41,519 nucleotides of DNA from a phage (NC_093711.1); one strand, 5' to 3'; shown: positions 8,445-40,858, numbered from the stretch's first letter. Notes: generated from the sequence alone by a model not told the origin. A program made the numbers and translations.

Positions 8445-8808
8445 ATATTCCGTCTAAGCCCATGATAACCTCGGCTTCGAACAAACTTATGCCGTAACCG
8501 GCGACATCACGAAACGCTACCAAATCTTGCCATTTGAGCGCGTCGCGCGGGATTATAACGATAGTATCATCTGTTTCGCGCTGTAGGAATTTAATGGCAC
8601 GGTATTTCTCGAACACATCGATAAGAGAAACGGGGCATTCTGGCCCCGTCGCTTCTTTCATCTGCGGTTCTTTAATCACGCCCATTGCAATCAAAGCCGC
8701 CTGGTGGCCCGCCGCGATGTCGTCAAATTGCTTACGCTTATGGCGGTCAACAAAACACCATTGCGCAAATTCATACAGCGCTTTTACTTTTCCGAGAGTT
8801 TCTCGCGG
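8422..8808 (-). CDS. tail assembly chaperone extension (T-like part of a putative G/GT -1 frameshift product)
   Basis: This frame is open from about 8808 to 8422 and is -1 relative to the upstream chaperone gene, overlapping its last ~25 nt. No ATG or Shine-Dalgarno is present; the ORF track starts it at a TTG (8694). Overlaps the tape measure start. Confidence 0.4.
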   Translation of the reverse strand, partial: PRETLGKVKALYEFAQWCFVDRHKRKQFDDIAAGHQAALIAMGVIKEPQMKEATGPECPVSLIDVFEKYRAIKFLQRETDDTIVIIPRDALKWQDLVAFRDVAGYGISLFEAEVIMGLDGIFEGREDG

Positions 8809-9200
8809 CTATCGGTGTGGTGCTTAACTACGGCTTCTGCCAGTCCGCTGTACTGGTCGAACAGGTTAGCCAGCGCCTCTTTGCTGAACGGCTCATCGAA
8901 TGACCAACCGGTGACGATTTCCACGGCAAGCTGCTTGTTCAGGTCCATCACCCGCCAGCCCTTCTCGTCGTTATAGCGCGCCCAGTTATTCAGCGCCTCA
9001 CACTCTTTATCTAATGGCGCGAGTTCTTCCGTAAGGCGTCTAATTGCCGTTGTGTAGGCGCGGCCTGCACGAACACCTGCATCACAATCAGGGCCTATGA
9101 CCTGCAACCATTCGCCGGAGTCTTTACCGCTCGGCAGAAGGATAGGCATTTTAGTACCAGCAGCGTGGCGGTCAGCAAAATAAAAATCAGAAAGTTTCAT
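8784..9200 (-). CDS. tail assembly chaperone (G-like)
   Basis: 138-aa ORF between the major tail protein region and the tape measure gene, followed by an overlapping -1 frame ORF. Confidence 0.55.
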   Translation of the reverse strand: MKLSDFYFADRHAAGTKMPILLPSGKDSGEWLQVIGPDCDAGVRAGRAYTTAIRRLTEELAPLDKECEALNNWARYNDEKGWRVMDLNKQLAVEIVTGWSFDEPFSKEALANLFDQYSGLAEAVVKHHTDSREKLSEK

Positions 9201-9307
9201 TCTTTAATCCTTTGGTTAAGAGGTTACGGGTTAAGGTTAATGCGCCAGACGGGAACCACCCGCTTTTCGTGTGCGACACTAGGCGCAAACTTATTCTAGC
9301 ACACTAC

Positions 9308-9337
9308 TTGCACACCCCAATATAATAGGGTACTATT
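9308..9337 (+). promoter_or_regulatory. sigma70-like promoter TTGCAC-N17-TACTAT with palindromic operator AATAG-N4-CTATT (9324-9337)
   Basis: -35 TTGCAC at 9308-9313, -10 TACTAT at 9331-9336. The palindrome overlaps the -10. About 30 nt upstream of the 9365 start with a GAGGG Shine-Dalgarno. Confidence 0.5.
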
Positions 9338-9364
9338 CACCTGTAACTTACTGAGGGAACAATT

Positions 9365-9691
9365 ATGCGTAAATTAGTATTAGCTCTGGGGCTTATGTCT
9401 TTTGCTACTTTTGGGGCCCCGTGCGAACAGGTATTTAGTGAATCTGTTCTTATGACTTCTGGTGTGCTTGAGAAAGCCGACCCTACTATTGTAAAGGCAT
9501 TTAAGGACTCTACAGTTCGCGAGTGTGAGGCCGCCGTAGAGGTTGGTAAATCGGGCCTACCCCCGCAAGCCGTAACCTACACGGTAATACGTTCTGTAGA
9601 GAAAAACGGAGATGCATTCTACAGCCTACTGACAGCCACACGTCTGCAAATGGTAATGACCGGATGGGCAATAGGTGCAGAAAGTAAATAG
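9365..9691 (+). CDS. secreted (periplasmic) protein, unknown function
   Basis: 108-aa ORF with an N-terminal signal peptide (MRKLVLALGLMSFATFGAP). Not a canonical lipobox (Pro at -1). First gene of the plus-strand insert. Confidence 0.6.
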   Translation: MRKLVLALGLMSFATFGAPCEQVFSESVLMTSGVLEKADPTIVKAFKDSTVRECEAAVEVGKSGLPPQAVTYTVIRSVEKNGDAFYSLLTATRLQMVMTGWAIGAESK

Positions 9692-9756
9692 TCGCCTTTA
9701 TTTAAAGGAATGCACTGTGGTTAAATAGGACAAATCCTAAACACGAGGAAGTAAGC

Positions 9757-10887
9757 ATGGCCCAGAAGAAAATAACCGACGAACAGTTGCAGGAAGAATT
9801 GAACGCCGGTATGAAGAATATCGACATCGCCCGTAAATACGGCATCTCCGACCGCGTTATTCGTATCCGTAAAGCGAAGCTGGCTAAGAAAGGTGTAGGC
9901 CACGGGCGTGACGTTAGTTACCTTGTACCGGACGGCTACAAGATTAAAGGAACGTCATCACTGGTGGATGAGTTTGGCAACACCAAGTTGCAATGGGTTA
10001 AGACCGACACCGATGCCGAACGTCAGGTTGAATTGATGAAAGCCGTAATCGAAGGCATGAAGTCGGAGATTACACCAGTTGCACCTGTTAAAGCCGTTCG
10101 CGCCAAACGTGACGACAAGCTGCTAAATCTTTACACTGTATCTGATTTCCATCTCGGTATGCTGGCCTGGGCCGACGAGAGCGGCGACGACTGGGATATG
10201 AAAATCGCGGAAGACCTGTTCTCTCGATGGTTCGATGCTGCGTTTCAGAAAGCGCCAGATGCAGGAACAGGAGTTATTAACCTGCTAGGCGACCTTGCGC
10301 ACTTCGATAGTCTGGACGCCGTTACACCTGCAAGCGGTCACGTTCTTGACGCTGACACCCGCTATCAGAAACTTGTACGCTACATGATTCGTATGGTGCG
10401 TCGTGTTATCGATATGGCCCTCGTTAAGCATAAAAATGTTCGCTTGCTTATTGTGCAAGGGAACCACGACGAGAGCGGAATGATTTGGTTAGCTGAGATG
10501 TTCAGTACGCTGTACGACAATGAGCCGCGTGTGTTCGTCGATACGTCGCCGGATGTTTACAAGATGGTGCAACACGGCAAAACGACGCTGTTCTTCCATC
10601 ATGGGCATAAAGCACGATTCGACGCTATCGAACCGGTTATGATCGCCAAGTTCCGCAAAGCGTTCGGCGAGAGTGTTTACAGCTACGCCCACGTGGGTCA
10701 CCTGCACCACCAAAAGATTGTAGAAAGCCGTAACATGATTGTTGAGCAACACCGCACTCTCGCGGCTAAAGATGCATATGCCTCCCGCGGTGGGTGGATG
10801 TCGGGCCGCAGTGCAAACGTAATTACTTATAGCGCCGAATATGGCGAGGTCGCACGTTTAACTATTTCACCGGAGATGCTTGGATGA
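9757..10887 (+). CDS. calcineurin-like metallophosphoesterase with N-terminal HTH-like domain
   Basis: 376-aa ORF with five metallophosphoesterase motifs in order (DFH, GDLAH, GNHDE, HHGH, GHLHH). The N-terminal ~110 aa carry an HTH-like segment (NIDIARKYGISDRVIRIRKAKL). Stop overlaps the next start (ATGA). Confidence 0.7.
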   Translation: MAQKKITDEQLQEELNAGMKNIDIARKYGISDRVIRIRKAKLAKKGVGHGRDVSYLVPDGYKIKGTSSLVDEFGNTKLQWVKTDTDAERQVELMKAVIEGMKSEITPVAPVKAVRAKRDDKLLNLYTVSDFHLGMLAWADESGDDWDMKIAEDLFSRWFDAAFQKAPDAGTGVINLLGDLAHFDSLDAVTPASGHVLDADTRYQKLVRYMIRMVRRVIDMALVKHKNVRLLIVQGNHDESGMIWLAEMFSTLYDNEPRVFVDTSPDVYKMVQHGKTTLFFHHGHKARFDAIEPVMIAKFRKAFGESVYSYAHVGHLHHQKIVESRNMIVEQHRTLAAKDAYASRGGWMSGRSANVITYSAEYGEVARLTISPEMLG

Positions 10888-11369
10888 AAGATATTGTGAT
10901 TTTCGATTTAGACGGGACATTGGCAGATGGTACTCATCGTTTACACCTGCTGCCGAAAGATAACTACGGCGAAACCTGGGCGTGGAAACCATTTAACATG
11001 GCGTGCAAAGACGATGCACCCATTAAAGATAACATCGAACTGTGTAACGCCCTTAATCGTCGCTATGCCGTTATTATCTTAACAGGCCGTAGTGATGACG
11101 CGGAAAAAGAAACCAGAATGTGGTTGCAGCGCCACCGCGTCGAATTTTATCAGTTAATCATGCGCAGCAAACACGACAACAGAAAAGACATCGTAATTAA
11201 AGAAGAGGTGTTGCGTGCTATTGGGCCGGAGAGAATCTTGTGTGCATTCGACGACTCTCCAGCGGTAATAAAGCATTTCCGCGGACTCGGTATAACCACT
11301 CACGCGGTTACTGAATACGACTGTAACGGGAACTCTACTCACTTAAAACCGCACGGGAGCGATAAATAA
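10884..11369 (+). CDS. HAD-superfamily phosphatase (polynucleotide 3'-phosphatase / 5'-nucleotidase-like)
   Basis: 161-aa ORF with an N-terminal DxDGT motif (FDLDGTLADG) and downstream acidic motifs (AFDDSP). Translationally coupled on both sides. Confidence 0.7.
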   Translation: MKDIVIFDLDGTLADGTHRLHLLPKDNYGETWAWKPFNMACKDDAPIKDNIELCNALNRRYAVIILTGRSDDAEKETRMWLQRHRVEFYQLIMRSKHDNRKDIVIKEEVLRAIGPERILCAFDDSPAVIKHFRGLGITTHAVTEYDCNGNSTHLKPHGSDK

Positions 11370-11923
11370 TGGCTAAGGTAATTATTCTTAATGGTCCTGC
11401 TGGTTGCGGGAAAGACACTCTTGCTATGGCGCTGGTAGAAATGGGCTTTGCAAAAGGAACTGCCAGTTTCAAGACTCCAATGTTCAATATTGCTTTGGCA
11501 GCGTTAGGCCCGGATGTTTACCACGAGTTTCTCGACGGCTACGACGACCGAGCGCGGAAAGAAAAGCAGGAAGGCTTCCTTAATGGTTTGTCGCGACGTC
11601 AGTTCATGATTGCTATCTCTGAACAATTCATTAAACCGGTGCTTGGTAGTGATTATTTCGGTAAGTATCTTGCTGAAAACTTGCCCGACGGCAACGAAGT
11701 TTTTGTAGTGTCCGACGGTGGATTCGCCAGCGAAGTAGCCCCTATCGTTGCCGCAGGGCATGATGTGAGAATCGTTCGCTTGCACAGAGACGGCTATACG
11801 TTTGAAGGGGACAGCCGTGGTTACCTGTACGATATTGATGGTGTAAAAGATTATGACACCTACATCATACCGGGTTACGTTAAATCGAACGCTATAGGTA
11901 TTGCTTTAATATTAGGTTTGTAA
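11369..11923 (+). CDS. P-loop kinase (dNMP kinase-like or polynucleotide kinase-like)
   Basis: 184-aa ORF with a Walker A motif GPAGCGKDT near the N-terminus. The GKDT variant is recalled from T4-type dNMP kinase. Start overlaps the upstream stop (TAATG). Confidence 0.65.
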   Translation: MAKVIILNGPAGCGKDTLAMALVEMGFAKGTASFKTPMFNIALAALGPDVYHEFLDGYDDRARKEKQEGFLNGLSRRQFMIAISEQFIKPVLGSDYFGKYLAENLPDGNEVFVVSDGGFASEVAPIVAAGHDVRIVRLHRDGYTFEGDSRGYLYDIDGVKDYDTYIIPGYVKSNAIGIALILGL

Positions 11924-11925
11924 GA

Positions 11926-11950
11926 AAAAGGCCCCGAAAGGGGCCTTAGT
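11926..11950. terminator. bidirectional rho-independent terminator
   Basis: GC hairpin GGCCCCGAAAGGGGCC flanked by an A-run and a T-run, between the convergent kinase gene (+) and major tail gene (-). Confidence 0.7.
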
Positions 11951-11951
11951 T

Positions 11952-13124
11952 TTATGCGTAGGTGATGCGCTGAATAACAATAGACGACTGGTACTGGTTA
12001 CCAGTAGCCTGGCCTTCGATGGACTGAGTGATTGACTCAGGCCCGCCAATCTCAGGTGTAACCGCGGTAAGTTCTGCACGTTTCAAGCTGAAAGACATAG
12101 CCCCGTTTACCCCCGCCAGAATAGAGTTAATCTCCACCTGCTGCTCGTTGATAAACTTCTGAATCATCGCCATGTCGTACAGCTTACCGGAGATGGAGAA
12201 GGTGTTAGCTGCTCGGCTACGCTCCACAAACGCTACGTTAGTGTTGCCGAGTTCGAACTGTGCGGACGCGCTGTTGTCGTTGGTGATGGTCAGGCTGTCG
12301 CAACGCAACGGCGTAGAACCGTCGAACACAGAAACATCGACCGAGGAGAATGGCTCGTCACCAAACGTAACAGAGGAGAAATCAGAACCAGACGGCTGCG
12401 TGGTGAGAATCTCCTGACTGCGACCGATGAACGGGAAGCTGCCAGTTACCATAGCGTTAACAGCCTGTTCGATGGTAAAACCAGAAACTTCCACGCCTTT
12501 GGTTAGTGTGTACGCGTCAGTCCCGCCGCACTGGCCTTTGTACCAGGTGAGAATAGAGAACGTCTTGCACTGGCTTCCCGTTTCCAGTTTATCCCCTGTC
12601 TTAGCGGCGGTAGTTACTGTCTCTGTGGTCAGGGTATGCTGGATACCCGCCCCGGTCACTACCAGTGCCTCTACTGCAGTTACGATAAACGGTTTTGCGT
12701 TGTCACCGGTTAAGTCGGTAAACGCAATCAGGTCGCCCACTTCAACGCCGTCAGAAATAAAGCTACCTTCGGCACGGGTAAAGGTCTTGCCTGCAGGCGC
12801 GACGGTAATTGATAGCCCGGTCAGAGAACTACCGGATTGCCATGTAGAGCCTAAAGCACCCGCCAGCCAGTCGTCCTGGCTTTTCGAGCTAAGCTCAATA
12901 GCGTATTCTCCGCTAACCTGCTTGTTACCGGTGCGGATTGACGTAGTTTCACGGCTGCCGTCCAGTTCGTTGGAGGTCAGCGTGTCGCGGGTAATGGCAG
13001 GAACGCCACCTGTGTTACGCAATGGCGACCAGACCGGGTTAGTCGGTGTTACGCCCGGGGTAGTTTCTGCCACATAGAATTGCGCAGTATTCGCGCCCTT
13101 AAAAGGAGTTGTAGCCATATTCAC
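11952..13124 (-). CDS. major tail protein
   Basis: 390-aa ORF in the canonical position after the tail terminator-like gene. Thr/Ser/Gly-rich, beta-rich composition. Confidence 0.55.
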   Translation of the reverse strand: MNMATTPFKGANTAQFYVAETTPGVTPTNPVWSPLRNTGGVPAITRDTLTSNELDGSRETTSIRTGNKQVSGEYAIELSSKSQDDWLAGALGSTWQSGSSLTGLSITVAPAGKTFTRAEGSFISDGVEVGDLIAFTDLTGDNAKPFIVTAVEALVVTGAGIQHTLTTETVTTAAKTGDKLETGSQCKTFSILTWYKGQCGGTDAYTLTKGVEVSGFTIEQAVNAMVTGSFPFIGRSQEILTTQPSGSDFSSVTFGDEPFSSVDVSVFDGSTPLRCDSLTITNDNSASAQFELGNTNVAFVERSRAANTFSISGKLYDMAMIQKFINEQQVEINSILAGVNGAMSFSLKRAELTAVTPEIGGPESITQSIEGQATGNQYQSSIVIQRITYA

Positions 13125-24808: not shown

Positions 24809-25294
24809 TCATTTAACAGCCCTCCCAATAGCCTCAGCCTCTTGCCACGGTTTACCGTCGAACAGCGCCAGACGCCCGGCTGTACGGCGACGCAGGCCAA
24901 GTAGTGGTTTGCCGTTCTGGTTGATGAACAGCGCCAGCTTAGCCCGCAGTGTTGCAGTATCACCAGAACGCAGTGCCTTGCCTGTGCCCGTAGTAGACGC
25001 AATCACGCCAGCACCTGCGTTATACACCAGGTCACACACCGCATCGAACTGTGCCTGTGTAAGCGAATGGTGCGCCGCGGCATCAACCGCAGCTACGGCT
25101 TTAGACATATCGCGATTCAGTAACAGGAGGCCTTGCCCCGGGGTGATGGTCTTACCCGGGGTTACGTCCGGTCCGTAGTGCCCGTAGCCAATAGTCAGGT
25201 ACTTCTCGTTCGACGTAGCACGATACGCAGTTCCACGGAACCCCTCGAACGCGGCGGTAAAATGCAATCCATTATCTGAAATGTTTCGAGACAT
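24809..25294 (-). CDS. endolysin, phage lysozyme family (T4/P22 gp19-like muramidase)
   Basis: Catalytic-region pattern FEGFRGTAYR...YLTIGYGHYG and downstream helical domain. Probable start MSRNISDNG with a GGAGGG Shine-Dalgarno; the track ORF extends to 25345. Confidence 0.75.
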   Translation of the reverse strand: MSRNISDNGLHFTAAFEGFRGTAYRATSNEKYLTIGYGHYGPDVTPGKTITPGQGLLLLNRDMSKAVAAVDAAAHHSLTQAQFDAVCDLVYNAGAGVIASTTGTGKALRSGDTATLRAKLALFINQNGKPLLGLRRRTAGRLALFDGKPWQEAEAIGRAVK

Positions 25295-25544
25295 GCTTAT
25301 GCCCTCCGTATGACAGCCACGCCTGGCGAATCTGGCGCAGCGCAACTAATGTGATTAACGTCTCAGGCAGCGTCGGCGACATGCCGCCTTGTAACAGGTG
25401 GATACATCCGGCGGCGCAGACGATAGCAGTCAGGATATAGAGCACCCGACCGAACAGCCCGTCGTCCACGCTGGGGTGATATACATTAAACAGCGATGTG
25501 CCCCCGATTGCCAGCATACCGCCGAACCAGAATAACTCATTCAT
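25272..25544 (-). CDS. small membrane protein (holin/antiholin-like, 2 TM)
   Basis: From the internal Met MNELFWFGG: two hydrophobic helices and a charged C-terminus. Lies between the holin and endolysin genes. Confidence 0.5.
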   Translation of the reverse strand: MNELFWFGGMLAIGGTSLFNVYHPSVDDGLFGRVLYILTAIVCAAGCIHLLQGGMSPTLPETLITLVALRQIRQAWLSYGGHKHVSKHFR

Positions 25545-25845
25545 CCGGGCCTCCTCGACGTGCGATGTATTCTCCGGCGACGATACCAGAGAGGCGGGAA
25601 TAGATAGGCATCCAGAGAATAGCGATGATGAATCCGAGGCCAGCGATTTCACGGTCGCCCGTGATGCCAAACCATTGAGCCGCGAGAGGGGCGCCAAATA
25701 CGGCGCAGGTAAAGCCGGTTGCAATAAAGCAGAAGCCATCGATAGGGCCAGAAATAACGGACTTATGTTGTCGTAGTCCGATGACCCCTCCGGCGAGTGC
25801 GGCAGCGAGAAGCCAGCCTGTCACTGTTTCAGTAAATTTATCCAA
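25537..25845 (-). CDS. holin (3 predicted TM segments)
   Basis: 102-aa ORF with three hydrophobic segments and a charged C-terminal tail, immediately upstream of the lysis genes. Confidence 0.55.
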   Translation of the reverse strand: MDKFTETVTGWLLAAALAGGVIGLRQHKSVISGPIDGFCFIATGFTCAVFGAPLAAQWFGITGDREIAGLGFIIAILWMPIYSRLSGIVAGEYIARRGGPDE

Positions 25846-27631: not shown

Positions 27632-27761
27632 CAGCTTCACCCCTTTTCTCATCCACCCCGACTAGCAGCGATTTAGTGTCGCCGTCACACACCGAAGCGC
27701 TACTAATTATTTCGTAAGCGTCTACCAGTTCGCCTAAAGTCCAGCTACCGTACCAGCCCAT
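27624..27761 (-). CDS. small hypothetical protein (~45 aa), not in the ORF track
   Basis: GAGGAGAG Shine-Dalgarno; stop overlaps the start of the Cys-rich gene. Confidence 0.3.
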   Translation of the reverse strand: MGWYGSWTLGELVDAYEIISSASVCDGDTKSLLVGVDEKRGEADE

Positions 27762-27827
27762 CTCTGTCTCTCCTCTCGCTTGTGTAAATGAATAGTAGCC
27801 TATTCTATCTTAGTGTGCAAGTAAATT

Positions 27828-28001
27828 TTATTGGTGTGTTATGGAGTCGATGAATGCCAGTAACTCCCTTTCCGCTTCTGCCTCTCTTTCTTCAAGCGAC
27901 CAGGTAGCGGATTCCTCTGTCGCCGTTGCTAAATCGGTTTTCGCATCAACCATCGTGTCGATTAACGTGATTAGTCGTTCAGCCTGTTCTTTAGTAATCA
28001 T
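27828..28001 (-). CDS. small acidic helical protein (~57 aa), not in the ORF track
   Basis: AGGAG Shine-Dalgarno 8 nt upstream of ATG; MITKEQAERLITLIDTMVDAK... Preferred over the antisense Ser/Ala-rich plus-strand ORF 27841-28071. Confidence 0.35.
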   Translation of the reverse strand: MITKEQAERLITLIDTMVDAKTDLATATEESATWSLEEREAEAERELLAFIDSITHQ

Positions 28002-28144
28002 TGTTGCATCTCCTGCAATAGTCGCTTCGATTGTTGCGTTTGTTGCGTTTGATGAAAGTGTCGCCTTTTGACGACACTAAGTTAAAGTTGTACGCTGCTG
28101 TGTAGCAGCGTAAGTCACTCAGTAAAATCCCAAACTATTGAACA

Positions 28145-28345
28145 TCACACTTCTGGCGGCTCGGGTAACGGCATCCAGTGCGTCACGTACTTATCGTAGT
28201 GATTCCAGAAAGGCTTTCTCCCGTCATCAGGAACTATGTAATAATCGTGCTGAACTGCGTTATTTAACGTTTCATACACCAGGAACTCTTTATCCGTATA
28301 CCCATTACCCGGCAGCATCTCACTACACTTAATCCACTCACCCAT
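28145..28345 (-). CDS. DUF551-like phage protein
   Basis: 66-aa ORF with MGEWIKCSEMLP... and C-terminal THWMPLPEPP, a pattern recalled from DUF551-type phage proteins. Confidence 0.45.
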   Translation of the reverse strand: MGEWIKCSEMLPGNGYTDKEFLVYETLNNAVQHDYYIVPDDGRKPFWNHYDKYVTHWMPLPEPPEV

Positions 28346-28493
28346 ACCTCACACCTCTTTCAATCAAGGATTGCACACCAGCTTTCCACGCCCGCCACGC
28401 AAGACGCGTCTTAACGTTCAGGTACTCTTTCTTTGAACCCTTGTTAACCGGCAGACCCTCGACCACAGCCCACCGTTCAAATGCTTCTCTCAT
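28338..28493 (-). CDS. small hypothetical protein (~51 aa), not in the ORF track
   Basis: Coupled by overlapping start/stop to both neighbours. Confidence 0.3.
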   Translation of the reverse strand: MREAFERWAVVEGLPVNKGSKKEYLNVKTRLAWRAWKAGVQSLIERGVRYG

Positions 28494-28645
28494 ACCAGAA
28501 CCTCACATTCATCCCGATACACGAACAATAACGACCCTTTGTACTCAATCATAAAACCATAATGGTTGCTGCTGAACGCCGGAAAAACATCACCTACCGA
28601 GATACCGAAATCTATAAGCCTGCGGTCAGTTATTCGGATTCTCAT
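28490..28645 (-). CDS. small hypothetical protein (~51 aa), not in the ORF track
   Basis: Coupled by overlapping start/stop; GAGGA Shine-Dalgarno. Confidence 0.3.
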   Translation of the reverse strand: MRIRITDRRLIDFGISVGDVFPAFSSNHYGFMIEYKGSLLFVYRDECEVLV

Positions 28646-28648
28646 AGC

Positions 28649-28891
28649 TCAGTCCTCATCATCTTCTAAGTCTGGGTACACTATGAAATCTCCAACCCTT
28701 TGCAACTCCGCACCCGCCATAAAATAGCCAAGTGCTTCGGCTCTTTCGGAATCGGTTTTAAACTCAGACAAAGGATATCTTTCGTAGAACTTGTTAATTA
28801 ATAACGCCTGGTCAAACTTAGTCGCATCATAATTTTTCATACCAACCCCCCGCAACGCGCACACCACATGAACGGTTAAAGTATTATTCAT
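28649..28891 (-). CDS. hypothetical protein with acidic C-terminus
   Basis: Probable start MNNTLTVH; the track ORF extends to 28927. Ends ...YPDLEDDED. Confidence 0.4.
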   Translation of the reverse strand: MNNTLTVHVVCALRGVGMKNYDATKFDQALLINKFYERYPLSEFKTDSERAEALGYFMAGAELQRVGDFIVYPDLEDDED

Positions 28892-29072
28892 GGCAACCTC
28901 CCTCAGAGTCGTCGGCGCGAGCATCATGATTCGATGCCGTTTGCTCCCGCACTTCTACCATCCTTCCTACCACTGCGGCATAATACACATACCGCTTTAT
29001 TGCGTAATCTTTATTACTTGTCGTCTCTGTTATGACCCCGTCGACGTATACGTCGTAAATTAATTCCCCCAT
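28884..29072 (-). CDS. hypothetical protein
   Basis: ~62 aa, coupled to the upstream ORF (ATGA). Confidence 0.4.
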   Translation of the reverse strand: MGELIYDVYVDGVITETTSNKDYAIKRYVYYAAVVGRMVEVREQTASNHDARADDSEGGCHE

Positions 29073-29254
29073 CACTTCGCCCCTTTGAATTTAAAATTGT
29101 TGCCGATGAGTTCTAAATTATCGTGACGAACATAACCATGTTTCCTCCGTATAAGGCCAAATACGGCGACAACACCATATTCATCCTCGTCTTTGGTAAC
29201 TATTACGTGTTGCCGGCTGCGCTTTGTTTTCACCAACTGACCATTCTTAAACAT
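29072..29254 (-). CDS. hypothetical protein, first gene of the leftward early operon
   Basis: ATG at ~29254 with a GAGGAG Shine-Dalgarno; the track ORF starts at an upstream GTG (29263). Confidence 0.45.
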   Translation of the reverse strand: MFKNGQLVKTKRSRQHVIVTKDEDEYGVVAVFGLIRRKHGYVRHDNLELIGNNFKFKGAK

Positions 29255-29287
29255 AACCCTCACTCCTCTGTCTCGTTTCGATAAGTG

Positions 29288-29317
29288 AATAGTATCCTAT
29301 TATGTTGAGGTGCGCAA
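29288..29317 (-). promoter_or_regulatory. leftward early promoter TTGCGC-N17-TACTAT with palindromic operator AATAG-N4-CTATT (29288-29301)
   Basis: Minus strand: -35 TTGCGC (rc at 29312-29317), 17-nt spacer, -10 TACTAT (rc at 29289-29294). Operator overlaps the -10. Confidence 0.5.
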
Positions 29318-29439
29318 GAGATTAGTTACGTTGCCGTTGTGATTCTTTTGTTTAATGGGGTAGCGAGCGAAACGAAACGAACGTGGTGCCGAAGGCACCA
29401 AGAGTGAGTGAGTGAGCTTGCGGTTCTAACCTACGGCAA

Positions 29440-29630
29440 ATCAGTAACTTAGATAATTAGACAGGAATTACAATAGACTTTGGTCCTTCCGAATGCGCCA
29501 GCGAGACTCACTCCACACGTCGAGACGTGCTCGTTTCGCCTGCCGCGCACCGCGGTCGCTTGTTCATACTTCACAAGCTCAGGACGAGCTTACCATATTT
29601 CTTAGTAAAAGTCAATACCAATAGCATCTT
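29440..29630. other. conserved non-coding element, copy B (paralogous to 17411-17600)
   Basis: Lies between the leftward early promoter and the rightward promoter. 34-nt identity at 29550-29583 with 17518-17551; hairpins at equivalent positions. Confidence 0.6.
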
Positions 29631-34069: not shown

Positions 34070-35307
34070 TTCTTAAAGAACGCGGTGGAAATAACGATGT
34101 TCACGCATTACTGTCGCCGTCTGGGGCTAAAAAGTGGCTAAGCTGTGCCGCATCACTGGCCTGTGAGAAAGATATTCCTAACTCGTCCGGCAAAGCTGCC
34201 GTATTAGGTACAGCAATGCACACCATAGCAGAGATGCATCTTAACCAGTACATCAAAGGCACTGCGCTGCCGTTAGAGCGCGAAGTCGGGGCTTACGTGC
34301 TGGATGAAGGTAAAGGCCAGATTAAGGCTCTAATCAGCCCGATGAAAGGCGCGGTACTTATTACGGCGGACATGATTGAACAGGTGCGCAAGTACACCGA
34401 CTATTGTAAGGCGATTATCGATGTAGCGACTTACGCTAAGCTGGAAATGCGCGTCAATCTTACTGAGGTATTGCATCCGGGTTATGAAGGCGTTGAGACG
34501 TTCGGAACCGCTGACATCGTTGCCATACAGGAACTGGCGAACACCGACGAACACATGCTTATCATCGGCGACCTGAAAACCGGGCGGCATCGTGTCGAAG
34601 CGAAAGAAAACAAGCAGCTTATGCTTTACGCTCCCGGTGTTTATCGCCGACTCAAGAGACGTTATAACATAACAACCGTTCGTCTGGTCATCTTCCAGCC
34701 GTATGCTGGCGGTGCGTCGGAGTGGGACATCTCGGTTGAAGGTCTGGAACTGTTCGCTAAGTTTGCACATAAACGCGCGCTGTTAGCCCTTGATGCGTAT
34801 TTCCGTGGCAAGAAGAATCTGAAAGCGTCGGATTTCAGGCCGTCGGTCGATGGTTGTCAGTGGTGTCGGTTCTCTGAACAATGTGCCGCGCGTACAAAGA
34901 CGGTTAATTCTGTACTGGCGGAAGAACTAGAAGACGACTTTGTGCTGGAACTTACGCCGGAGCAACTCGTAGCTGAGTATGAGAAGTTGCCGTTGTTGCG
35001 CCAGCACATCGACAAGGTTGAAAAAGCGATGGCAGCCGCTTTGCATTCCGGTAAGAAAGTGCCGGGTTACAAGCTGGTTGAAGGTCGCCAGGGTAATCGT
35101 GCGTGGAAAGACGCGGAGAAAGTAACAGAACTCTACGGCGACAAGCTGACTAAAGAAGTGCTCATGTCACCTACCGAAGCTGTTAAAGTCATACCGGAAG
35201 AAGAACTGAAAGACTTCATTACCCGTAAGCCGGGCGCACCATGTGTCGCAACGGCAGACGACAAACGTCCTGAGTGGAATCAGGTAACAGAGGAGGATTT
35301 AGAATGA
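34066..35307 (+). CDS. PD-(D/E)XK nuclease, Cas4/RecB-like exonuclease
   Basis: 413-aa ORF with nuclease-core motifs (GTADIVAI, IGDLKTG, QLMLYA) and a C-terminal Cys cluster CQWCRFSEQC typical of Cas4-like nucleases. Ends ...VTEEDLE. Confidence 0.7.
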   Translation: MILKERGGNNDVHALLSPSGAKKWLSCAASLACEKDIPNSSGKAAVLGTAMHTIAEMHLNQYIKGTALPLEREVGAYVLDEGKGQIKALISPMKGAVLITADMIEQVRKYTDYCKAIIDVATYAKLEMRVNLTEVLHPGYEGVETFGTADIVAIQELANTDEHMLIIGDLKTGRHRVEAKENKQLMLYAPGVYRRLKRRYNITTVRLVIFQPYAGGASEWDISVEGLELFAKFAHKRALLALDAYFRGKKNLKASDFRPSVDGCQWCRFSEQCAARTKTVNSVLAEELEDDFVLELTPEQLVAEYEKLPLLRQHIDKVEKAMAAALHSGKKVPGYKLVEGRQGNRAWKDAEKVTELYGDKLTKEVLMSPTEAVKVIPEEELKDFITRKPGAPCVATADDKRPEWNQVTEEDLE

Positions 35308-35459
35308 GTACGATTCAGGAATTACATAAAAGCTACTTACAACAACACCGAAACGGCGCCAAGCTGGGCAGGAGCAAAACAATATACCGGGTATTCAGGA
35401 TGGTAATTAGGGATGAGTCGGCTAAAATTATACGTATGACAAAAGAAACGTTTAAATAA
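35304..35459 (+). CDS. small basic protein (51 aa)
   Basis: ATG overlaps the nuclease stop; a GAGGAGG Shine-Dalgarno lies in the nuclease 3' end. The track ORF starts at 35274. Confidence 0.4.
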   Translation: MSTIQELHKSYLQQHRNGAKLGRSKTIYRVFRMVIRDESAKIIRMTKETFK

Positions 35460-35463
35460 AGTG

Positions 35464-35493
35464 TTGACACCTGAATAGTAAGCTATTATAGTT
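35464..35493 (+). promoter_or_regulatory. promoter TTGACA-N18-TATAGT with palindromic operator AATAG-N4-CTATT (35474-35487)
   Basis: Upstream of the SSB-like gene. Confidence 0.5.
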
Positions 35494-35546
35494 CTAATCA
35501 CTGGCCGGGCAGCTTCCCGGAGTAAACTTAAAAGCGAGAAATCACG

Positions 35547-36173
35547 ATGGGTATTAAACTGAATCTGCGTAAAGTAAACACTGCATGGGTTAACGTATTC
35601 GAACGCGAAAAAGACCGTGAAAACGATGATGGCTCGATCACTAAAGGCCAGTACAGCGCGACTATCATCCTGCCGTCTGACCACGCACAAATCGACGCGC
35701 TCTACGACACCGTTTACGCTGTGGTTGAAGAAGCGTTGGGCGCAGCTGCCGCTGAGAAGTGGATGAAGTCCAACTACGGCGAAGGTAAGCACATGGATAA
35801 ATGTGCGATTAAAGACATTGCCGAGCGCGACAATCCGTTTGAAGACTTCCCGGAAGGCTTCTACTTCAAGGCGAAGGCACAGAAACAGCCACTGATTGTA
35901 ACCTCTAAAAAAGGCGAGACTCAGGTAGAACAGGACTTCAATGTAGACGGCGAACAGATTGAAGGTGAACAGGTTTACAGCGGCTGCGTCGCTAACGTAA
36001 GCGTTGAAATCTGGTTCAGTAAGAAATATAAAGTCCTCGGCGTTAACCTGCTGGCGATTAAATACATTGGCGAAGGCAAAGCGTTTGGCGGTTCTAATGT
36101 CGCTGCCAGCGTAAATGACCTGGAAGACGACGAAGAAGATGAAGCACCGCGCCGCGAGCGTCGTCGTCGCTAA
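35547..36173 (+). CDS. ssDNA-binding / annealing-type protein with acidic C-terminal tail
   Basis: 208-aa ORF ending in an acidic tail (DLEDDEEDEAP) followed by an Arg-run. Adjacent to the Cas4-like nuclease. Confidence 0.45.
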   Translation: MGIKLNLRKVNTAWVNVFEREKDRENDDGSITKGQYSATIILPSDHAQIDALYDTVYAVVEEALGAAAAEKWMKSNYGEGKHMDKCAIKDIAERDNPFEDFPEGFYFKAKAQKQPLIVTSKKGETQVEQDFNVDGEQIEGEQVYSGCVANVSVEIWFSKKYKVLGVNLLAIKYIGEGKAFGGSNVAASVNDLEDDEEDEAPRRERRRR

Positions 36174-36192
36174 TATCTGAATCAATTTAACT

Positions 36193-36216
36193 AAGGCCCT
36201 TCATTGGGCCTTTTTA
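36193..36216 (+). terminator. rho-independent terminator after the SSB-like gene
   Basis: AAGGCCC-TTCATTG-GGCCTT followed by TTTT. Confidence 0.55.
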
Positions 36217-36232
36217 CTAAGGGTCAAAAATA

Positions 36233-38413
36233 ATGAGTTACCTGTTCTTAGACTTTGAAACATTCTCCGAAGCCGATTTGAAGAAAGTCGGCTCCTACGC
36301 TTACGCCGAACATCCAACCACCGAAGTTCTAATCTGCACATATGCTTTTGACGACGAGCCTGTGCAGGTATGGGATTGCACCAACGGCAGCGACATGCCG
36401 GGGGATTTGCACCGCGCACTGCGCCGCCTGGTGAAGCCAAACAGTCGCATTAAGATGGTGTGGCACAACGGCTCAATGTTCGACAGGCTCATAATGAAGC
36501 ATTGCTGGGACTTTGATATTCCGGTAAGCAACACCATTGATACGATGATTTGGGCGTTTCGTCACGCGCTGCCGGGTTCTCTTGATGCGCTGTGTGAAGT
36601 GCTTGGCGTGTCCGCAGACAACGCGAAAGACAAACGAGGCAAAGCGCTTATTCAGCGTTTTTCTAAACCGACACCGAAGAACTACAAAATCCGCCGCTAC
36701 ACTGCTGAAACGCACCCGGATGAGTGGGCGCTGTTCATCAGGTACGCCGTTAGCGACATCACCGCGATGCGTGAAGTGTTCCATAAGCTGCCACGTTGGG
36801 GCAACTCCGAGTTCGAAGACCGTGTGCTGGAACTGGACCAGTTAATCAACGACCGCGGGTTTAAGGTTGACGTTGCACTGGCGGAGGCCGCGATTGAAGC
36901 CGTGGAGAAACACAAAGCGCAGTTACAGGAAGAAGCCCAACGTAAATACGGCGGCTCGCTTACCGGAAAGGACTTCCTGCCGATTCTGCGTGAACTGGCG
37001 CCTGCTCATCGCATCCACAACGCGCAGAAGTCTACGCTTAACGACCTGCTTGCTGACGATGATTTACCGGACGACGCCCGCACGATTATAGAAATGCGCC
37101 TCGGGGCGGCATCCACTGCGTCAACGAAATATAACCCGCTGCTGTTAGGCCGCTCGTCTGACGACCGCCGTCGCGGTTGCATCCAGTATGGTGGAGCTAA
37201 ACGTACGTTACGATTTGCGGGTAAAGGCTTCCAGCCGCAGAACCTGGCGCGTGGGTACTATCACGATGATGAACTGGATAAAGGTATTTCAGCATTACTT
37301 AAGGGCCGAGCACATCGCCGTTTTGATGTAGCCAAGCTAACGGCATCTACGGTTCGCAGCTGCATTATCCCGGAAGCCGGACATAAGTTTGTCGTCGCCG
37401 ACTACTCGAACGTTGAAGGCCGCGGTTTGGCGTGGCTGGCTGGCGAAGAAACCGCGCTTGATACGTTCCGTGCCGGGCTGGATATTTACTGCGTAACCGC
37501 AGGCAAGATGTTCGGCATGGAGCCGGATTACATTAAGAAAGAACGTAAAGACTTACGCCAGATTGGTAAGGCATGCGAACTTGGACTTGGCTACGCGGGT
37601 GGTGTCGGCGCATTCGTACAGTTCGCCAAGAACCTCGGCCTTGACCTTGTTGATATGGCAAAAACAATGGACGGGACTTTCCCCGACCACATCTGGGCTG
37701 CTACCGCACGTGGATATGAGTGGGCGCGTATTCAGGAAGCCAAGAGACCGCCACGTCCCGGTGAAAAAGATGACCGACCATCATATATTCTGGACAAGAA
37801 AGTGTGGCGTACCTGCGACGCTATCAAGCGTATGTGGCGCGAGTCTCATCCTGAAACAGTAGCTTTCTGGCGAGATATTGAAGACGCAGCTATGGCGGCT
37901 ATCCGCAATCCAGGTAAAGAGTTCACTGCAGGTCCGCGCGGCGTTAAGTTTTCGCGTAACGTAGAGACAGACAACAACGGCAACAAAGTCGCCGGTTGGT
38001 GGTTGCGTATGACGTTGCCGTCTGGTCGAGTTATGTCATACCCTGGCGTCGGGTTAAGCGTGTCGAAAGAGACAGACGAAGACGGGAAGGTGTCTACCAA
38101 CGTGCGCATCAAGTACCAGGGCGAAAACCAGTTAACCCGTCAGTGGGGCTTCCAGTACACCTACTCTGGTAAACTGGTGGAAAACTGCACTCAGGCGCTG
38201 TGCCGTGATTTGTTGGCTAATGCACTGCTGAACGTCGAAGCAAACGGCTACCCGATTGTGCTTCATGTTCACGATGAGATTATCTGCGAGACACCAGATT
38301 TACCAGAATACAATGTCGCAGAACTGGAACGATTGATGTGCGAATTACCAGAGTGGGCCGAGGGGTTCCCTCTTGTAGCAGAAGGCGCGGAGATGAAGCG
38401 TTATGCCAAGTAA
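36233..38413 (+). CDS. DNA polymerase, family A (Pol I-like) with 3'-5' exonuclease domain
   Basis: 726-aa ORF with exo motif I (FLDFETFS), polymerase motif A (VVADYSNVEGRGLA), motif B (RQIGKACELGLGYAGG) and motif C (HVHDEI). Confidence 0.85.
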   Translation: MSYLFLDFETFSEADLKKVGSYAYAEHPTTEVLICTYAFDDEPVQVWDCTNGSDMPGDLHRALRRLVKPNSRIKMVWHNGSMFDRLIMKHCWDFDIPVSNTIDTMIWAFRHALPGSLDALCEVLGVSADNAKDKRGKALIQRFSKPTPKNYKIRRYTAETHPDEWALFIRYAVSDITAMREVFHKLPRWGNSEFEDRVLELDQLINDRGFKVDVALAEAAIEAVEKHKAQLQEEAQRKYGGSLTGKDFLPILRELAPAHRIHNAQKSTLNDLLADDDLPDDARTIIEMRLGAASTASTKYNPLLLGRSSDDRRRGCIQYGGAKRTLRFAGKGFQPQNLARGYYHDDELDKGISALLKGRAHRRFDVAKLTASTVRSCIIPEAGHKFVVADYSNVEGRGLAWLAGEETALDTFRAGLDIYCVTAGKMFGMEPDYIKKERKDLRQIGKACELGLGYAGGVGAFVQFAKNLGLDLVDMAKTMDGTFPDHIWAATARGYEWARIQEAKRPPRPGEKDDRPSYILDKKVWRTCDAIKRMWRESHPETVAFWRDIEDAAMAAIRNPGKEFTAGPRGVKFSRNVETDNNGNKVAGWWLRMTLPSGRVMSYPGVGLSVSKETDEDGKVSTNVRIKYQGENQLTRQWGFQYTYSGKLVENCTQALCRDLLANALLNVEANGYPIVLHVHDEIICETPDLPEYNVAELERLMCELPEWAEGFPLVAEGAEMKRYAK

Positions 38414-38769
38414 ACTGATTATCGCGGTACTGGCGGGATTTGCTGCCGGTGTCTACTGTCACGAGGGTCAATACGGCATGATGGTTGCTATATTGGGTAT
38501 GTTCATCGCAATTTATCTGTGGGTGCTGGAATGAAAATCTACTGGTTTTATGAAGAAGACTGTCGAATCTGTCCGCGCTGCGGTATTGGACATACGAAAC
38601 GTGAGGGGTGCGTATTATGACAATGTTTGTATTTTGGACGATAGTAACCATGCTCGCACTGCTACTCGGCGCAGGAATAGCCGCGTTGTTCTGTTACGGT
38701 CTGTTCTTTAAGTTTGTTGGCGTTGCTGTTCTTGGCGGGGCTTTCATTACCTGGATTCCGCGGTCATGA
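38403..38769 (+). CDS. three overlapping coupled micro-ORFs (~43, 29 and 50 aa): two small membrane peptides flanking a Cys-rich peptide
   Basis: Approximate boundaries 38403-38534, 38531-38620 and 38617-38769, each joined by ATGA-type overlaps. Hydrophobic stretches in the first and third; CRICPRCG in the middle one. Not in the ORF track. Confidence 0.3.
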
Positions 38770-39050
38770 CTAAAGAGGGCCGCGTACAGAAATACGCAAA
38801 GGAGCGATTCGAGGCCATCGGCGGCCTCGTTCGTAAGCTCTCCTACGAAGGACGTTCGGGTGCTCCTGACCTGCTGGTAATTCTCCCCGGCGGCATAGTC
38901 TGGTTCGTCGAGATGAAGAAAGACGAAAACACGAAGCCAGACCCGCACCAGATACGTGAGCACGAGCGGATGCGTAAACGTGGTGCGAATGTTTTTGTCG
39001 TTGGTTCGTTTAAACAGGTTGACGACCTAATAGCGAGCTATTATAGTTAA
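38766..39050 (+). CDS. VRR-NUC domain nuclease
   Basis: 94-aa ORF with PD-(D/E)XK-type core (GAPDLLVILPGG...FVEMK) and a downstream QIREHERMRKRGA motif. Confidence 0.55.
   Translation: MTKEGRVQKYAKERFEAIGGLVRKLSYEGRSGAPDLLVILPGGIVWFVEMKKDENTKPDPHQIREHERMRKRGANVFVVGSFKQVDDLIASYYS
39019..39047 (+). promoter_or_regulatory. promoter TTGACG-N17-TATAGT with palindromic operator AATAG-N4-CTATT (39029-39042)
   Basis: Embedded in the 3' end of the VRR-NUC gene, ~35 nt upstream of the 39081 start. Confidence 0.45.
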
Positions 39051-39080
39051 TCACACACCAACAATATAAGGAATTGAGAA

Positions 39081-39272
39081 ATGAAACACGAATATGACCG
39101 CAAACCAGCACGTGACATCGTACCTGGCGATATGATTTTCAACGTTAAGACCCGCCACCCTGTTGCCGTTGATACGGTGTACGTCGAGTCAAACGGTAAA
39201 CTGGTTATCGAAGATGTAACAGGAAACGTTACGGCGTTCGGGCGTAAGGAACTGGTTCTGGTGGCGAAATGA
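39081..39272 (+). CDS. hypothetical protein
   Basis: 63-aa ORF coupled to the helicase gene (ATGA). Confidence 0.4.
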   Translation: MKHEYDRKPARDIVPGDMIFNVKTRHPVAVDTVYVESNGKLVIEDVTGNVTAFGRKELVLVAK

Positions 39273-40831: not shown

Positions 40832-40858
40832 AAGGCCCCGTTTGGGGCCTTAGTTTTA
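40832..40858. terminator. bidirectional rho-independent terminator
   Basis: GGCCCCGTTTGGGGCC hairpin with flanking A-run and T-run, between the convergent plus-strand replication operon and minus-strand tail fibre gene. Confidence 0.65.

Follow-up and report, generated by a model that had tools for sequence, protein, structure and literature searches.

What are four plus-strand genes doing in the middle of a minus-strand tail gene cluster, and do they work together? The question is raised by the window, a stretch of phage DNA of 41,519 nucleotides (NC_093711.1) that belongs to a K1H-like Kagunavirus and carries a plus-strand block of four ORFs at 9365-11923, between the tail assembly chaperone and major tail protein genes (Table 1). 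The first-pass annotation had described this block as an insert encoding a secreted protein and three enzymes that resemble polynucleotide end-healing modules. The coordinates and the placement of the genes between the minus-strand tail genes were confirmed. The four ORFs all have strong homologues and are genuine genes, and a GGAG-type ribosome-binding site precedes every start. The three enzyme genes are translationally coupled, as had been proposed, with start/stop overlaps ATGA (ORF2/ORF3) and TAATG (ORF3/ORF4).

The whole region shares 96.5% nucleotide identity with Escherichia phage K1H, where ORF15-18 (gp17-gp20 of NC_027994) correspond to them gene by gene and in location, with no essential difference. 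There they are annotated as a hypothetical protein, a DNA repair exonuclease, a polynucleotide kinase and an ATP-binding protein, and the same four-gene block is also present in other Kagunavirus genomes. The four-gene cassette of K1H-like coliphages has thus already been annotated, but no functional study of its genes was found in the literature. The term "insert" is right as to position but not as to history, since the same slot is used in Jerseyvirus SETP7, which makes the plus-strand arrangement ancestral to Guernseyvirinae. The operon is kept in Guernseyvirinae phages in the orientation opposite to that of the surrounding tail block.

Table 1. Features of the plus-strand block and its surroundings (positions in the window)
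Feature	Position	Strand	Description
Tail assembly chaperone	8784-9200	-	Flanks the plus-strand block
Intergenic control region	9201-9364		Conserved; candidate promoter, inverted repeat and chaperone-gene leader
Tail chaperone gene leader and ribosome-binding site	within 9201-9364	-	From sequence
Imperfect inverted repeat	9269-9281 / 9292-9304		13 nt, 77% complementary
Candidate plus-strand promoter	-35 TTGCAC 9308-9313, -10 TACTAT 9331-9336	+	N17 spacer; conservation with Jerseyvirus
Promoter-like site	9347->9319	-	Consensus scan
ORF1	9365-9691	+	108 aa, probable Sec-exported small protein
ORF2	9757-10887	+	376 aa, predicted HTH-fused binuclear metallophosphoesterase, nuclease clade
ORF2 HTH	aa 8-44, 9778-9888	+	Three-helix bundle in the predicted model
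ORF2 beta-hairpin/helix middle domain	aa 61-104, 9937-10068	+	Predicted model
ORF2 catalytic domain	aa 119-376, 10111-10884	+	Metallophosphoesterase fold
ORF3	10884-11369	+	161 aa, predicted stand-alone HAD (DxDxT) phosphatase, T4 Pnkp 3'-phosphatase type
ORF4	11369-11923	+	184 aa, predicted P-loop (GCGKDT) nucleotide kinase, T4 gp1 dNMP-kinase type
Predicted bidirectional intrinsic terminator	11928-11947	both	Hairpin, 8 bp stem, 6 G-C pairs
Major tail protein	11952-13124	-	Flanks the plus-strand block, convergent with it

The intergenic region upstream of ORF1 is 96% identical among ORF1-type Kagunaviruses. The operator-bearing promoter claimed for it was sustained only in part. Conservation points to TTGCAC-N17-TACTAT as the candidate promoter, with a predicted start near 9343, CTTGCA and TA.TAT being invariant as far as SETP7, but the consensus promoter scan of the region reported no plus-strand promoter, and the sole operator candidate that we can put forward is the 13-nt imperfect inverted repeat, of just 77% complementarity. 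The more obvious TATAAT at 9321-9326 was rejected as the main -10 element, being absent in SETP7 and having a -35 match of just 3/6. The predicted terminator behind ORF4, AAAAAGGCCCCGAAAGGGGCCTTAGTTTTAT, with an A-run on its 5' side and a T-run on its 3' side, was rated a terminator on either strand by the terminator scan, in agreement with the first-pass annotation; it would serve the plus-strand operon as well as the major tail protein gene, which converges on it.

ORF1 starts with MRK followed by a 14-residue hydrophobic stretch, a Sec-type N-terminus that bears out the earlier description of the protein as secreted, and its mature part contains two Cys. It was also considered as a lipoprotein and rejected, as the G-A-P ahead of Cys20 is not a lipobox. 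ORF1 matches phrog_14165 (1.1e-55), a family of unknown function; Pfam (even at E <= 1), NCBIfam and PADLOC gave no match. Its homologues are confined to Guernseyvirinae (98 records), it is present in 5 of 16 Kagunavirus loci, and its GC3 of 0.404 is the lowest in the region. In relatives, the slot is filled by an Imm_superinfect (PF14373) membrane protein: the Kagunaviruses K1G and K1ind1-3 have a 68-aa protein of this kind instead of ORF1, and the same-slot proteins of K1ind1 and SETP7 match PF14373 at 2.4e-13 and 4.8e-15. ORF1 itself has no match to this superinfection immunity family. It is interchangeable cargo, its slot being taken in relatives by a superinfection-immunity gene, and the protein is probably periplasmic and acts at the cell envelope, in superinfection exclusion or a similar process, independently of the enzymes.

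The domains named for the three enzymes at first pass (HTH and metallophosphoesterase, DxDGT HAD, GKDT P-loop) proved broadly right in profile searches and predicted structures. ORF2 contains all five metal-binding motifs (DxH, GD, GNH(D/E), H, GHxH) of the binuclear, calcineurin-like metallophosphoesterase superfamily, and its D130, H132, G178, D179, N236, H237, H282 and H317 are invariant among 40 diverse members. The Pfam metallophosphoesterase scores are sub-threshold (21.6 vs 27 and 18.9 vs 21.5), and the fold was confirmed by fold comparison, in which nucleases are the best matches and PPP-type folds reach only about 9. Motif II reads GDLAHFD, that is, the Mre11-like GDLxH with the motif-II histidine. 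Profile searches of PDB sequences gave marginal Mre11/SbcD and HTH matches only, the Mre11/SbcD similarity having E = 0.013. The HTH extension had been thought unusual; it is in fact usual in this phosphoesterase family, which comprises about 4,600 clusters and in which matches to Sigma70_r4_2, GerE and HTH_8 occur (the diversity was drawn from a representative-library search, two of three large searches yielding only near-identical Guernseyvirinae proteins). The motifs and the predicted model place ORF2 in the Mre11/SbcD/PolD-DP1 nuclease clade, as a metallophosphoesterase with an intact catalytic site and an N-terminal DNA-binding HTH. In lambda-phosphatase-type enzymes motif II is GDxxDRG, unlike in ORF2, and the assignment of ORF2 to the lambda-phosphatase-type phosphoesterases, like that of Clostridium thermocellum Pnkp (CthPnkp), was rejected on account of the fold clade.

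ORF3 matches PF25109 (HAD_PNKP) at 1.6e-19, with 70.9 bits against a cutoff of 27.6 and over positions 2-140 of the 143 in the profile, and phrog_415 at 1.8e-66; of the 295 positions in phrog_505, the family of full-length Pnkp, it aligns with 162-292 only. Its PDB matches are Pnkp1 (4xrp) and T4 Pnkp (5uj0, 1ltq), with only the C-terminal half of 1ltq being matched. The DxDxT motif, D8-L-D10-G-T12, is equivalent to T4 D165/D167/T169, and the alignment with 1ltq also equates R19 with R176, T67-G-R69 with S211-G-R213, R94 with R246, D102 with D254, K106 with K258 and D123/D124 with D277/D278. In T4 Pnkp, D165 is the nucleophile and D167 the general acid/base of the phosphatase, and Ser211, Lys258 and Asp277/278 are phosphate and Mg ligands (PMC3592404). 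The P-loop kinase domain that lies N-terminal of the phosphatase in a bifunctional Pnkp is absent from the 161 residues of ORF3, which by its sequence is a T4-Pnkp-type 3'-phosphatase domain standing alone.

ORF4 is a predicted deoxynucleoside monophosphate kinase of the T4 gp1 type. By two fold-search methods its closest solved fold is T4 gp1 (PDB 1DEK), with no polynucleotide kinase among the top fold matches. ORF4 and T4 gp1 match the same PHROG, phrog_139, at 1.2e-44 and 1.8e-65, respectively, over overlapping profile regions. Sequence and profile searches against the PDB gave generic P-loop matches only, and the hhalign alignment with T4 gp1 covers the P-loop only. Pfam DNMK (PF21448) has no match in ORF4, and one of 33 family members matches it weakly (0.0038). 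A kinase of the T4 Pnk type was defined by a GxxGxGK[S/T] P-loop and, behind strand 2, an Asp that acts as general base (T4 Asp35); the P-loop of ORF4 is GCGKD, outside this pattern, and residues 30-45 (TASFKTPMFNIALAAL) contain no acidic residue, the invariant residue there being K35. The likeness to end-healing modules therefore holds for the HAD protein but fails for the gp1-like kinase and the nuclease-clade phosphoesterase.

Relatives of each of the three enzyme genes are present in roughly 1,500-2,000 sequenced phage genomes. Of 80 kinase loci, 25 have the order MPE, HAD, kinase; AAS23 (Drexlerviridae) and Era103 (Autographiviridae) are among them, the proteins of Drexlerviridae and Era103 in this order having 41-59% identity with those described here. 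HAD and kinase lie on the same strand, at most 2 kb apart, in 54/80 loci; the gap between them is 0.7-2 kb in 27 loci, and a kinase without HAD occurs in 26/80. The phosphoesterase stands alone in SETP7, in the same slot, and in Shfl1/T1, Psq-1, a Vibrio phage and Dhillonvirus. In T1 the HAD/kinase pair is about 35 kb away from it, with no RNA ligase annotated, and in T1-like phages homing endonucleases and small ORFs are inserted between the genes. Among Drexlerviridae, the phosphoesterase persists in 508 of 522 phages, and the arrangement is given as 'DNA repair exonuclease, PNK, dNMP kinase' (PMC13164509). The HAD/kinase pair is the commonest cargo directly after the phosphoesterase in this family. 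In the window, ORF2 has native GC3, and the GC3 of ORF1, HAD and kinase is lower. Several groups of siphoviruses have ORF2 among their core genes, and the three enzyme genes need not occur together; ORF3 and ORF4, which follow ORF2 and are coupled to its translation, make an accessory pair. As the three can clearly act on their own, there is no need to assume a concerted pipeline.

We tentatively favour, at somewhat short of an even chance, the view that the block is a small metabolic operon for DNA and nucleotides, made up of one core gene and accessory cargo and engaged in DNA turnover and nucleotide salvage. We infer the substrates of ORF2-ORF4 from fold and family. The HTH-nuclease would degrade or resect DNA, either the host's or that of replication and recombination intermediates of the phage, and so release 5'-dNMPs, the phosphatase would clear 3'-phosphates from DNA ends or 3'-mononucleotides and let exonucleolysis and priming proceed, and the kinase would turn the freed dNMPs into dNDPs, which the host nucleoside diphosphate kinase would convert to dNTPs for phage replication. 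The neighbours of the kinase and HAD genes, which belong to DNA or nucleotide metabolism, argue for this reading: Era103 has the order exonuclease, endonuclease VII, trio, ATP-dependent DNA ligase, Navette has exonuclease, DNA ligase, kinase, dUTPase, the Bas87 kinase gene overlaps an exonuclease gene, and a stand-alone HAD gene overlaps nrdB in FL38. The authors of the KanT1 study independently proposed 'enhancing nucleotide supply', and manipulation of the nucleotide pool is the best fit among the roles suggested at first pass. Several observations speak against salvage: Pnkp-type phosphatases are best known from polynucleotide end healing, the trio is often unlinked, as the solitary kinases and the distant T1 phosphoesterase show, and a sequence-type HTH on a bulk-degradation nuclease has no ready explanation. 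The literature search turned up no accessible account of whether Kagunavirus degrades the DNA of its host.

It is also conceivable, if unlikely, that the genes have no joint function, the HTH-phosphoesterase being a core replication, recombination or regulatory factor and HAD, kinase and ORF1 independent cargo at a permissive operon end. Every sub-combination is found in nature, and the insertions between the genes of T1-like phages and the distinct GC3 of the phosphoesterase are consistent with this. However, the MPE-HAD-kinase order with start/stop overlaps recurs in three unrelated phage groups, and the preference of the Drexlerviridae pair for the position directly after the phosphoesterase also argues for a functional connection.

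Healing of DNA nicks and gaps appears rather unlikely. The phosphatase and kinase would make 3'-P/5'-OH breaks left by damage or by defence nucleases ligatable, the nuclease would trim damaged ends, and host LigA, or the phage ligase in Era103, would seal the breaks. T4 Pnkp acts on DNA ends in vitro and its eukaryotic homologues are dedicated DNA end-healers (PMC3592404). The HTH of ORF2 suggests DNA binding, the Era103 trio directly precedes the ligase gene and follows those of two nucleases, and the Navette kinase gene comes directly after DNA ligase, but it also adjoins dUTPase. In T7-like DNA-metabolism blocks, ligase and nucleotide-kinase genes adjoin without forming one pathway, which counts against reading such adjacency as an end-healing route. 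The kinase, moreover, has the gp1 fold and no Pnk-type general base, and Kagunavirus itself lacks a ligase: as had been noted at first pass, none is visible, the window having no ligase-sized unexplained ORF and the K1H annotation no ligase. In an improbable variant, ORF3 and the gp1-fold ORF4 would form a split end-healing enzyme recruited for 5'-OH polynucleotide ends, which together with the HTH-nuclease would mend DNA or RNA broken by host defences, a host ligase (in Era103, the phage ligase) sealing the ends; the trio would then be a mobile anti-defence cassette across unrelated phage families.

The RNA repair role suggested at first pass fared worse and is quite improbable. Here the HAD protein would remove 2',3'-cyclic or 3'-phosphates and the kinase would phosphorylate the 5'-OH ends that anticodon nucleases leave on tRNAs, with the phosphoesterase as an extra cyclic phosphodiesterase and a ligase sealing the product. 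No catalytic residue of the T4 Pnkp phosphatase is missing from ORF3, and HAD and kinase are translationally coupled here and closely linked in the 54 loci counted above. Against this stand the gp1-like kinase (by both fold-search methods and PHROG), with GKD in the P-loop and no acidic residue at the position of Pnk Asp35, the nuclease-clade phosphoesterase and the loci in which the kinase lacks a HAD partner. The tRNA and Rfam scans were both empty, and the genome has no tRNA gene and no RNA ligase. Host RtcB, an RNA ligase, takes 3'-P or cyclic-P ends together with 5'-OH ends as its substrates, and healed ends would be unusable for it.

A further anti-defence reading, in which the phosphoesterase cleaves cyclic (oligo)nucleotide second messengers and HAD and kinase alter signalling or depleted nucleotide pools, is very improbable: the best fold matches of ORF2 are nucleases and it carries a DNA-binding HTH, the PADLOC defence scan gave no matches, literature support was not found, and core-gene status in several families suits a housekeeping role better. 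DNA hypermodification, with the kinase phosphorylating a modified dNMP, as gp1-type kinases do in T4 and other modified-base phages (T4 gp1 annotation; PMC13326640), and HAD removing the canonical one, can practically be dismissed, since restriction-modification systems act strongly on Kagunavirus isolates (PMC11990801), and neither the window nor the K1H annotation contains a thymidylate synthase homologue or a base-modifying enzyme, for example a hydroxymethylase.

Should the salvage model hold, the cassette would lead from DNA breakdown to dNDPs by a compact and mobile route, and experiments would best be aimed at the HTH-nuclease, which persists as a core gene in T1-like phages. For annotation, it matters that stand-alone HAD proteins are widely labelled '3'-phosphatase, 5'-polynucleotide kinase' despite the missing kinase domain. 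Kagunaviruses serve as small synthetic-biology chassis, and for phage engineering ORF1, ORF3 and ORF4 are accessory and ORF2 is core. Current concepts are unchanged by these findings.

Compared with known systems, ORF2 has the nuclease-clade fold and the GDLxH motif in common with Mre11/SbcD and archaeal PolD DP1, but differs from both in its N-terminal HTH followed by a beta-hairpin middle domain. It lacks the capping domain and the Rad50/SbcC ATPase partner of Mre11/SbcD, and no SMC-like ORF is present in the window or in the K1H annotation. CthPnkp shares with the cassette the pairing of a P-loop kinase with a binuclear metallophosphoesterase, which in CthPnkp is of the lambda-phosphatase type (PMC2190708); there, kinase, metallophosphoesterase and ligase-like domains make up one protein, whereas here the proteins are separate and have no adenylyltransferase domain. 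Of the T4 Pnkp/PseT phosphatase domain, ORF3 retains the nucleophile, general acid and Mg-binding Asp pair, the Ser/Thr and Lys that bind phosphate, and equivalents of Arg176, Arg213 and Arg246; Arg279 is replaced by Ser. In T4 Pnkp the kinase is fused; ORF3 has no kinase domain and no partner RNA ligase, and adjoins a kinase from another family. That kinase, ORF4, has 18% identity with the T4 gp1 dNMP kinase (PDB 1DEK) and is 57 residues shorter. The setting also differs: the Drexlerviridae block adjoins the lysis cassette and Era103 gp26-28 lie in a DNA-metabolism block followed by a ligase, whereas in the K1H-like phages the genes are located inside the tail cluster.

The first-pass annotation placed four plus-strand genes between the minus-strand genes of the tail assembly chaperone and the major tail protein, and all four were found exactly there (see table). 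The window is an essentially complete genome of a K1H-like Kagunavirus (Guernseyvirinae), and the four-gene region is 96.5% identical to that of Escherichia phage K1H over the full length. The endosialidase tailspike gene encodes End_N_terminal, End_beta_propel, End_beta_barrel and End_tail_spike domains and a Peptidase_S74 chaperone domain; it is split by the window ends, so the window represents the whole genome, circularly permuted, of a phage specific for the K1 capsule. The genes, their families and synteny are already recorded in RefSeq and the literature, K1H ORF18-15 being annotated as hypothetical protein, DNA repair exonuclease, polynucleotide kinase and ATP-binding protein. All in all, the four genes make up an accessory metabolic cassette of an ordinary kind.

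Features of the four-gene region and related loci (window coordinates)
Feature	Position	Strand	Remark
Endosialidase tailspike gene	1-2184 and 40856-41431	-	split over both window ends
Tail assembly chaperone	8784-9200	-	
Conserved promoter-like site	9308-9313 and 9331-9336	+	TTGCA(C/T)-N17-TA(C/T)TAT
Promoter-like site	9347->9319	-	GTTACA-17-TATATT
ORF1, small protein, predicted exported	9365-9691	+	
ORF2, HTH + metallophosphoesterase	9757-10887	+	
ORF3, HAD phosphatase	10884-11369	+	
ORF4, P-loop kinase	11369-11923	+	
Hairpin terminator	11928-11947	both	A-run 5', T-run 3'; terminator score both ways
Major tail protein	11952-13124	-	

K1H has a DNA methyltransferase gene at 24972-25796, between the gp34 ORF, which adjoins the Holliday-junction resolvase gene, and the SNF2 helicase gene. 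No ORF of that size exists anywhere in the window, where 38413-39269 holds only small ORFs (43, 53, 53, 94 and 63 aa), so this strain appears to lack the gene. The stretch at ~27700-29500 contains only ORFs of 61-92 aa, has the lowest GC of the genome (0.43-0.46) with a strongly negative GC skew (-0.18 to -0.27) and, by rough coordinate mapping, matches an unannotated 2.1-kb K1H stretch (34646-36759). Early small genes, an origin or a regulatory region could lie here.

The proposed translational coupling is borne out by the overlaps ATGA (ORF2/ORF3) and TAATG (ORF3/ORF4), and all four starts have a GGAG-type ribosome-binding site. The terminator hairpin was scored on both strands, in agreement with its predicted bidirectionality. 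The suggested operator-bearing promoter stands only in part: an alignment including Jerseyvirus revealed a conserved promoter-like site, but a consensus scan of the region found no plus-strand promoter, and the sole candidate operator is a 13-nt inverted repeat, 77% complementary. The hexamer TATAAT at 9321-9326 was rejected as the main -10 element, with a -35 match of just 3/6 and no conservation in Jerseyvirus. The intergenic region 9201-9364, conserved as far as Jerseyvirus, carries GGTTA repeats across the minus-strand leader of the chaperone gene, a hairpin CGGG-AACCA-CCCG followed by CTTTTC, and a minus-strand promoter-like site opposing the candidate plus-strand promoter. Transcription of the tail chaperone and tape-measure genes may be restarted in this region, beyond the bidirectional terminator.

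The N-terminus of ORF1 is of the Sec type, and the mature part contains two cysteines. Pfam, PHROG and other profile scans revealed no family beyond one PHROG of unassigned function, and homologues are confined to Guernseyvirinae. In K1ind1 and SETP7, a two-helix Imm_superinfect protein occupies the slot, downstream of the same conserved upstream region. The best reading of ORF1 is that of exchangeable cargo directed to the envelope, and its slot hints, by analogy, at a possible role in superinfection exclusion.

ORF3 matches Pfam HAD_PNKP well over threshold across the whole profile, but its match to the full-length Pnkp family phrog_505 is confined to the C-terminal phosphatase part; in the PDB, only Pnkp1 and T4 Pnkp are related to it. 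By the 1LTQ alignment and the DxDGT motif, T4 D165/D167, R176 and S211-G-R213 correspond to ORF3 D8/D10, R19 and T67-G-R69; the alignment also pairs R246, D254, K258 and D277/D278 with R94, D102, K106 and D123/D124. ORF3 is thus a complete Pnkp-type 3'-phosphatase domain lacking a kinase domain, which makes the database label '3'-phosphatase, 5'-polynucleotide kinase' an over-annotation. Stand-alone HAD proteins of 160-180 aa are widely given this name, or 'polynucleotide kinase', in many phage records.

The Pfam scores of ORF2 are under threshold. Its binuclear-metal motifs are all invariant among Kagunavirus, Jerseyvirus, T1-like, Dhillonvirus, Vibrio and Sinorhizobium phages, and also in 40 diverse cluster representatives; the evidence argues strongly for a working enzyme. 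The family is very large: clustering at 50% identity leaves 4,628 representatives, almost all of them 370-420 aa long. The HTH extension, thought unusual at first, proved typical of the family, since it is a three-helix bundle in the model and various members match Sigma70_r4_2, GerE or HTH_8. In the fold comparison, cyclic-nucleotide and other phosphodiesterases scored 12-14, against about 9 for PPP/lambda-phosphatase-like enzymes of the bacterial Pnkp type. Motif II reads GDLAH, as in Mre11; no Rad50/SbcC partner for ORF2 was found.

Sequence methods recognised only the P-loop of ORF4. The PHROGs comparison assigned it to phrog_139, 'deoxynucleoside monophosphate kinase' (1.2e-44), which T4 gp1 also matches (1.8e-65). 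The AlphaFold2 model, with 33 diverse homologues as input, was confident (pLDDT 93.6); T4 Pnkp was missing from both top lists of the fold searches, and fungal RNA kinases scored only about 9.3. The P-loop GCGKDT agrees with SGKDT of gp1. In T4 polynucleotide kinase, Asp35 is the general base acting on the 5'-OH (PMC3592404); across the ORF4 family, the equivalent segment contains no acidic residue and Lys35 is invariant. Taken together, the PHROG, the fold, the P-loop and the missing Asp35 equivalent mark ORF4 as a gp1-type nucleotide kinase by family. Relatives of this kinase are variously labelled as ATPase, replication factor C, phosphomevalonate kinase or UvrD helicase.

From these established family assignments we infer substrates, order of action and cooperation. 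The favoured reading, at somewhat less than an even chance, is that the trio is a DNA-turnover and nucleotide-salvage cassette. The HTH-nuclease ORF2 would digest or resect DNA to 5'-dNMPs, ORF3 would clear 3'-phosphate blocks or 3'-mononucleotides, and ORF4 would make dNDPs for the host nucleoside diphosphate kinase. In Drexlerviridae, an 'exonuclease' persists in 508 of 522 genomes, and the commonest genes right after it, 'PNK' and 'dNMP kinase', were read as enhancing nucleotide supply in a 2026 paper (PMC13164509).

The trio is not an obligate unit, and a lack of any joint function is unlikely without being far-fetched. The phosphoesterase occurs alone in Jerseyvirus SETP7 (identical tail-module slot), T1-like Shfl1 (beside lysis genes), Dhillonvirus Psq-1 (ahead of terminase genes) and a Vibrio phage; in T1 some 35 kb separate it from the HAD-kinase pair. 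Among 80 loci encoding a kinase relative, 25 have the contiguous phosphoesterase-HAD-kinase order (16 Kagunavirus, 9 others), 27 carry HAD and kinase at a distance of 0.7-2 kb and lack a phosphoesterase in the vicinity, two have only an adjacent HAD-kinase pair, and 26 have the kinase alone. The full order recurs in the unrelated Pantoea phage AAS23 (Drexlerviridae) and Erwinia phage Era103 (Autographiviridae). GC3 is native in the phosphoesterase (0.565) and lower in HAD (0.506), kinase (0.454) and ORF1 (0.404), which fits a core gene with later cargo.

In T1, one homing endonuclease lies between HAD and kinase and another directly 3' of the phosphoesterase (locus L089, 5465-5959 and 42014-42496); mobile endonucleases seem to land preferentially at these genes. 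In loci that lack HAD and kinase, an ORF of 70-76 aa overlaps the phosphoesterase stop (SETP7 locus L005, 4628-4858; Psq-1 locus L004, 3822-4034). This ORF may encode a small conserved partner, or its position may be just a coincidence; the SETP7 ORF had no significant Pfam match (weakest hit E = 0.1).

Neighbourhoods elsewhere all belong to DNA or nucleotide metabolism. Era103 has exonuclease, endonuclease VII, the trio and then an ATP-dependent DNA ligase; Navette (Chaseviridae) has exonuclease, HNH, DNA ligase, kinase and dUTPase; the kinase gene of Bas87 (Kuravirus) overlaps an exonuclease gene, and a stand-alone HAD overlaps the nrdB end in FL38 (Krischvirus). The ligase adjacency in Era103 and Navette favours healing of DNA nicks with a DNA ligase, on balance a rather doubtful explanation. 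As initially noted, no ligase is visible: all window ORFs of at least 170 aa are accounted for, and the K1H annotation contains none. That the genes form a split end-healing system based on the fold of a dNMP kinase is improbable. RNA end-healing, the original proposal, is quite improbable, as the kinase is of the wrong type, the phosphoesterase is of the wrong clade, no RNA ligase is present, and the host RNA ligase RtcB requires unhealed ends. Degradation of nucleotide signals is very improbable, and DNA hypermodification, also raised initially, is hardly credible given the high sensitivity of Kagunaviruses to restriction-modification systems (PMC11990801).

What is new here is the assignment at residue and fold level, along with the result that the analogy with Pnkp end-healing is valid for one of the three enzymes only: ORF3 is a phosphatase of the Pnkp type, but the kinase resembles T4 gp1 and the phosphoesterase belongs to another clade.
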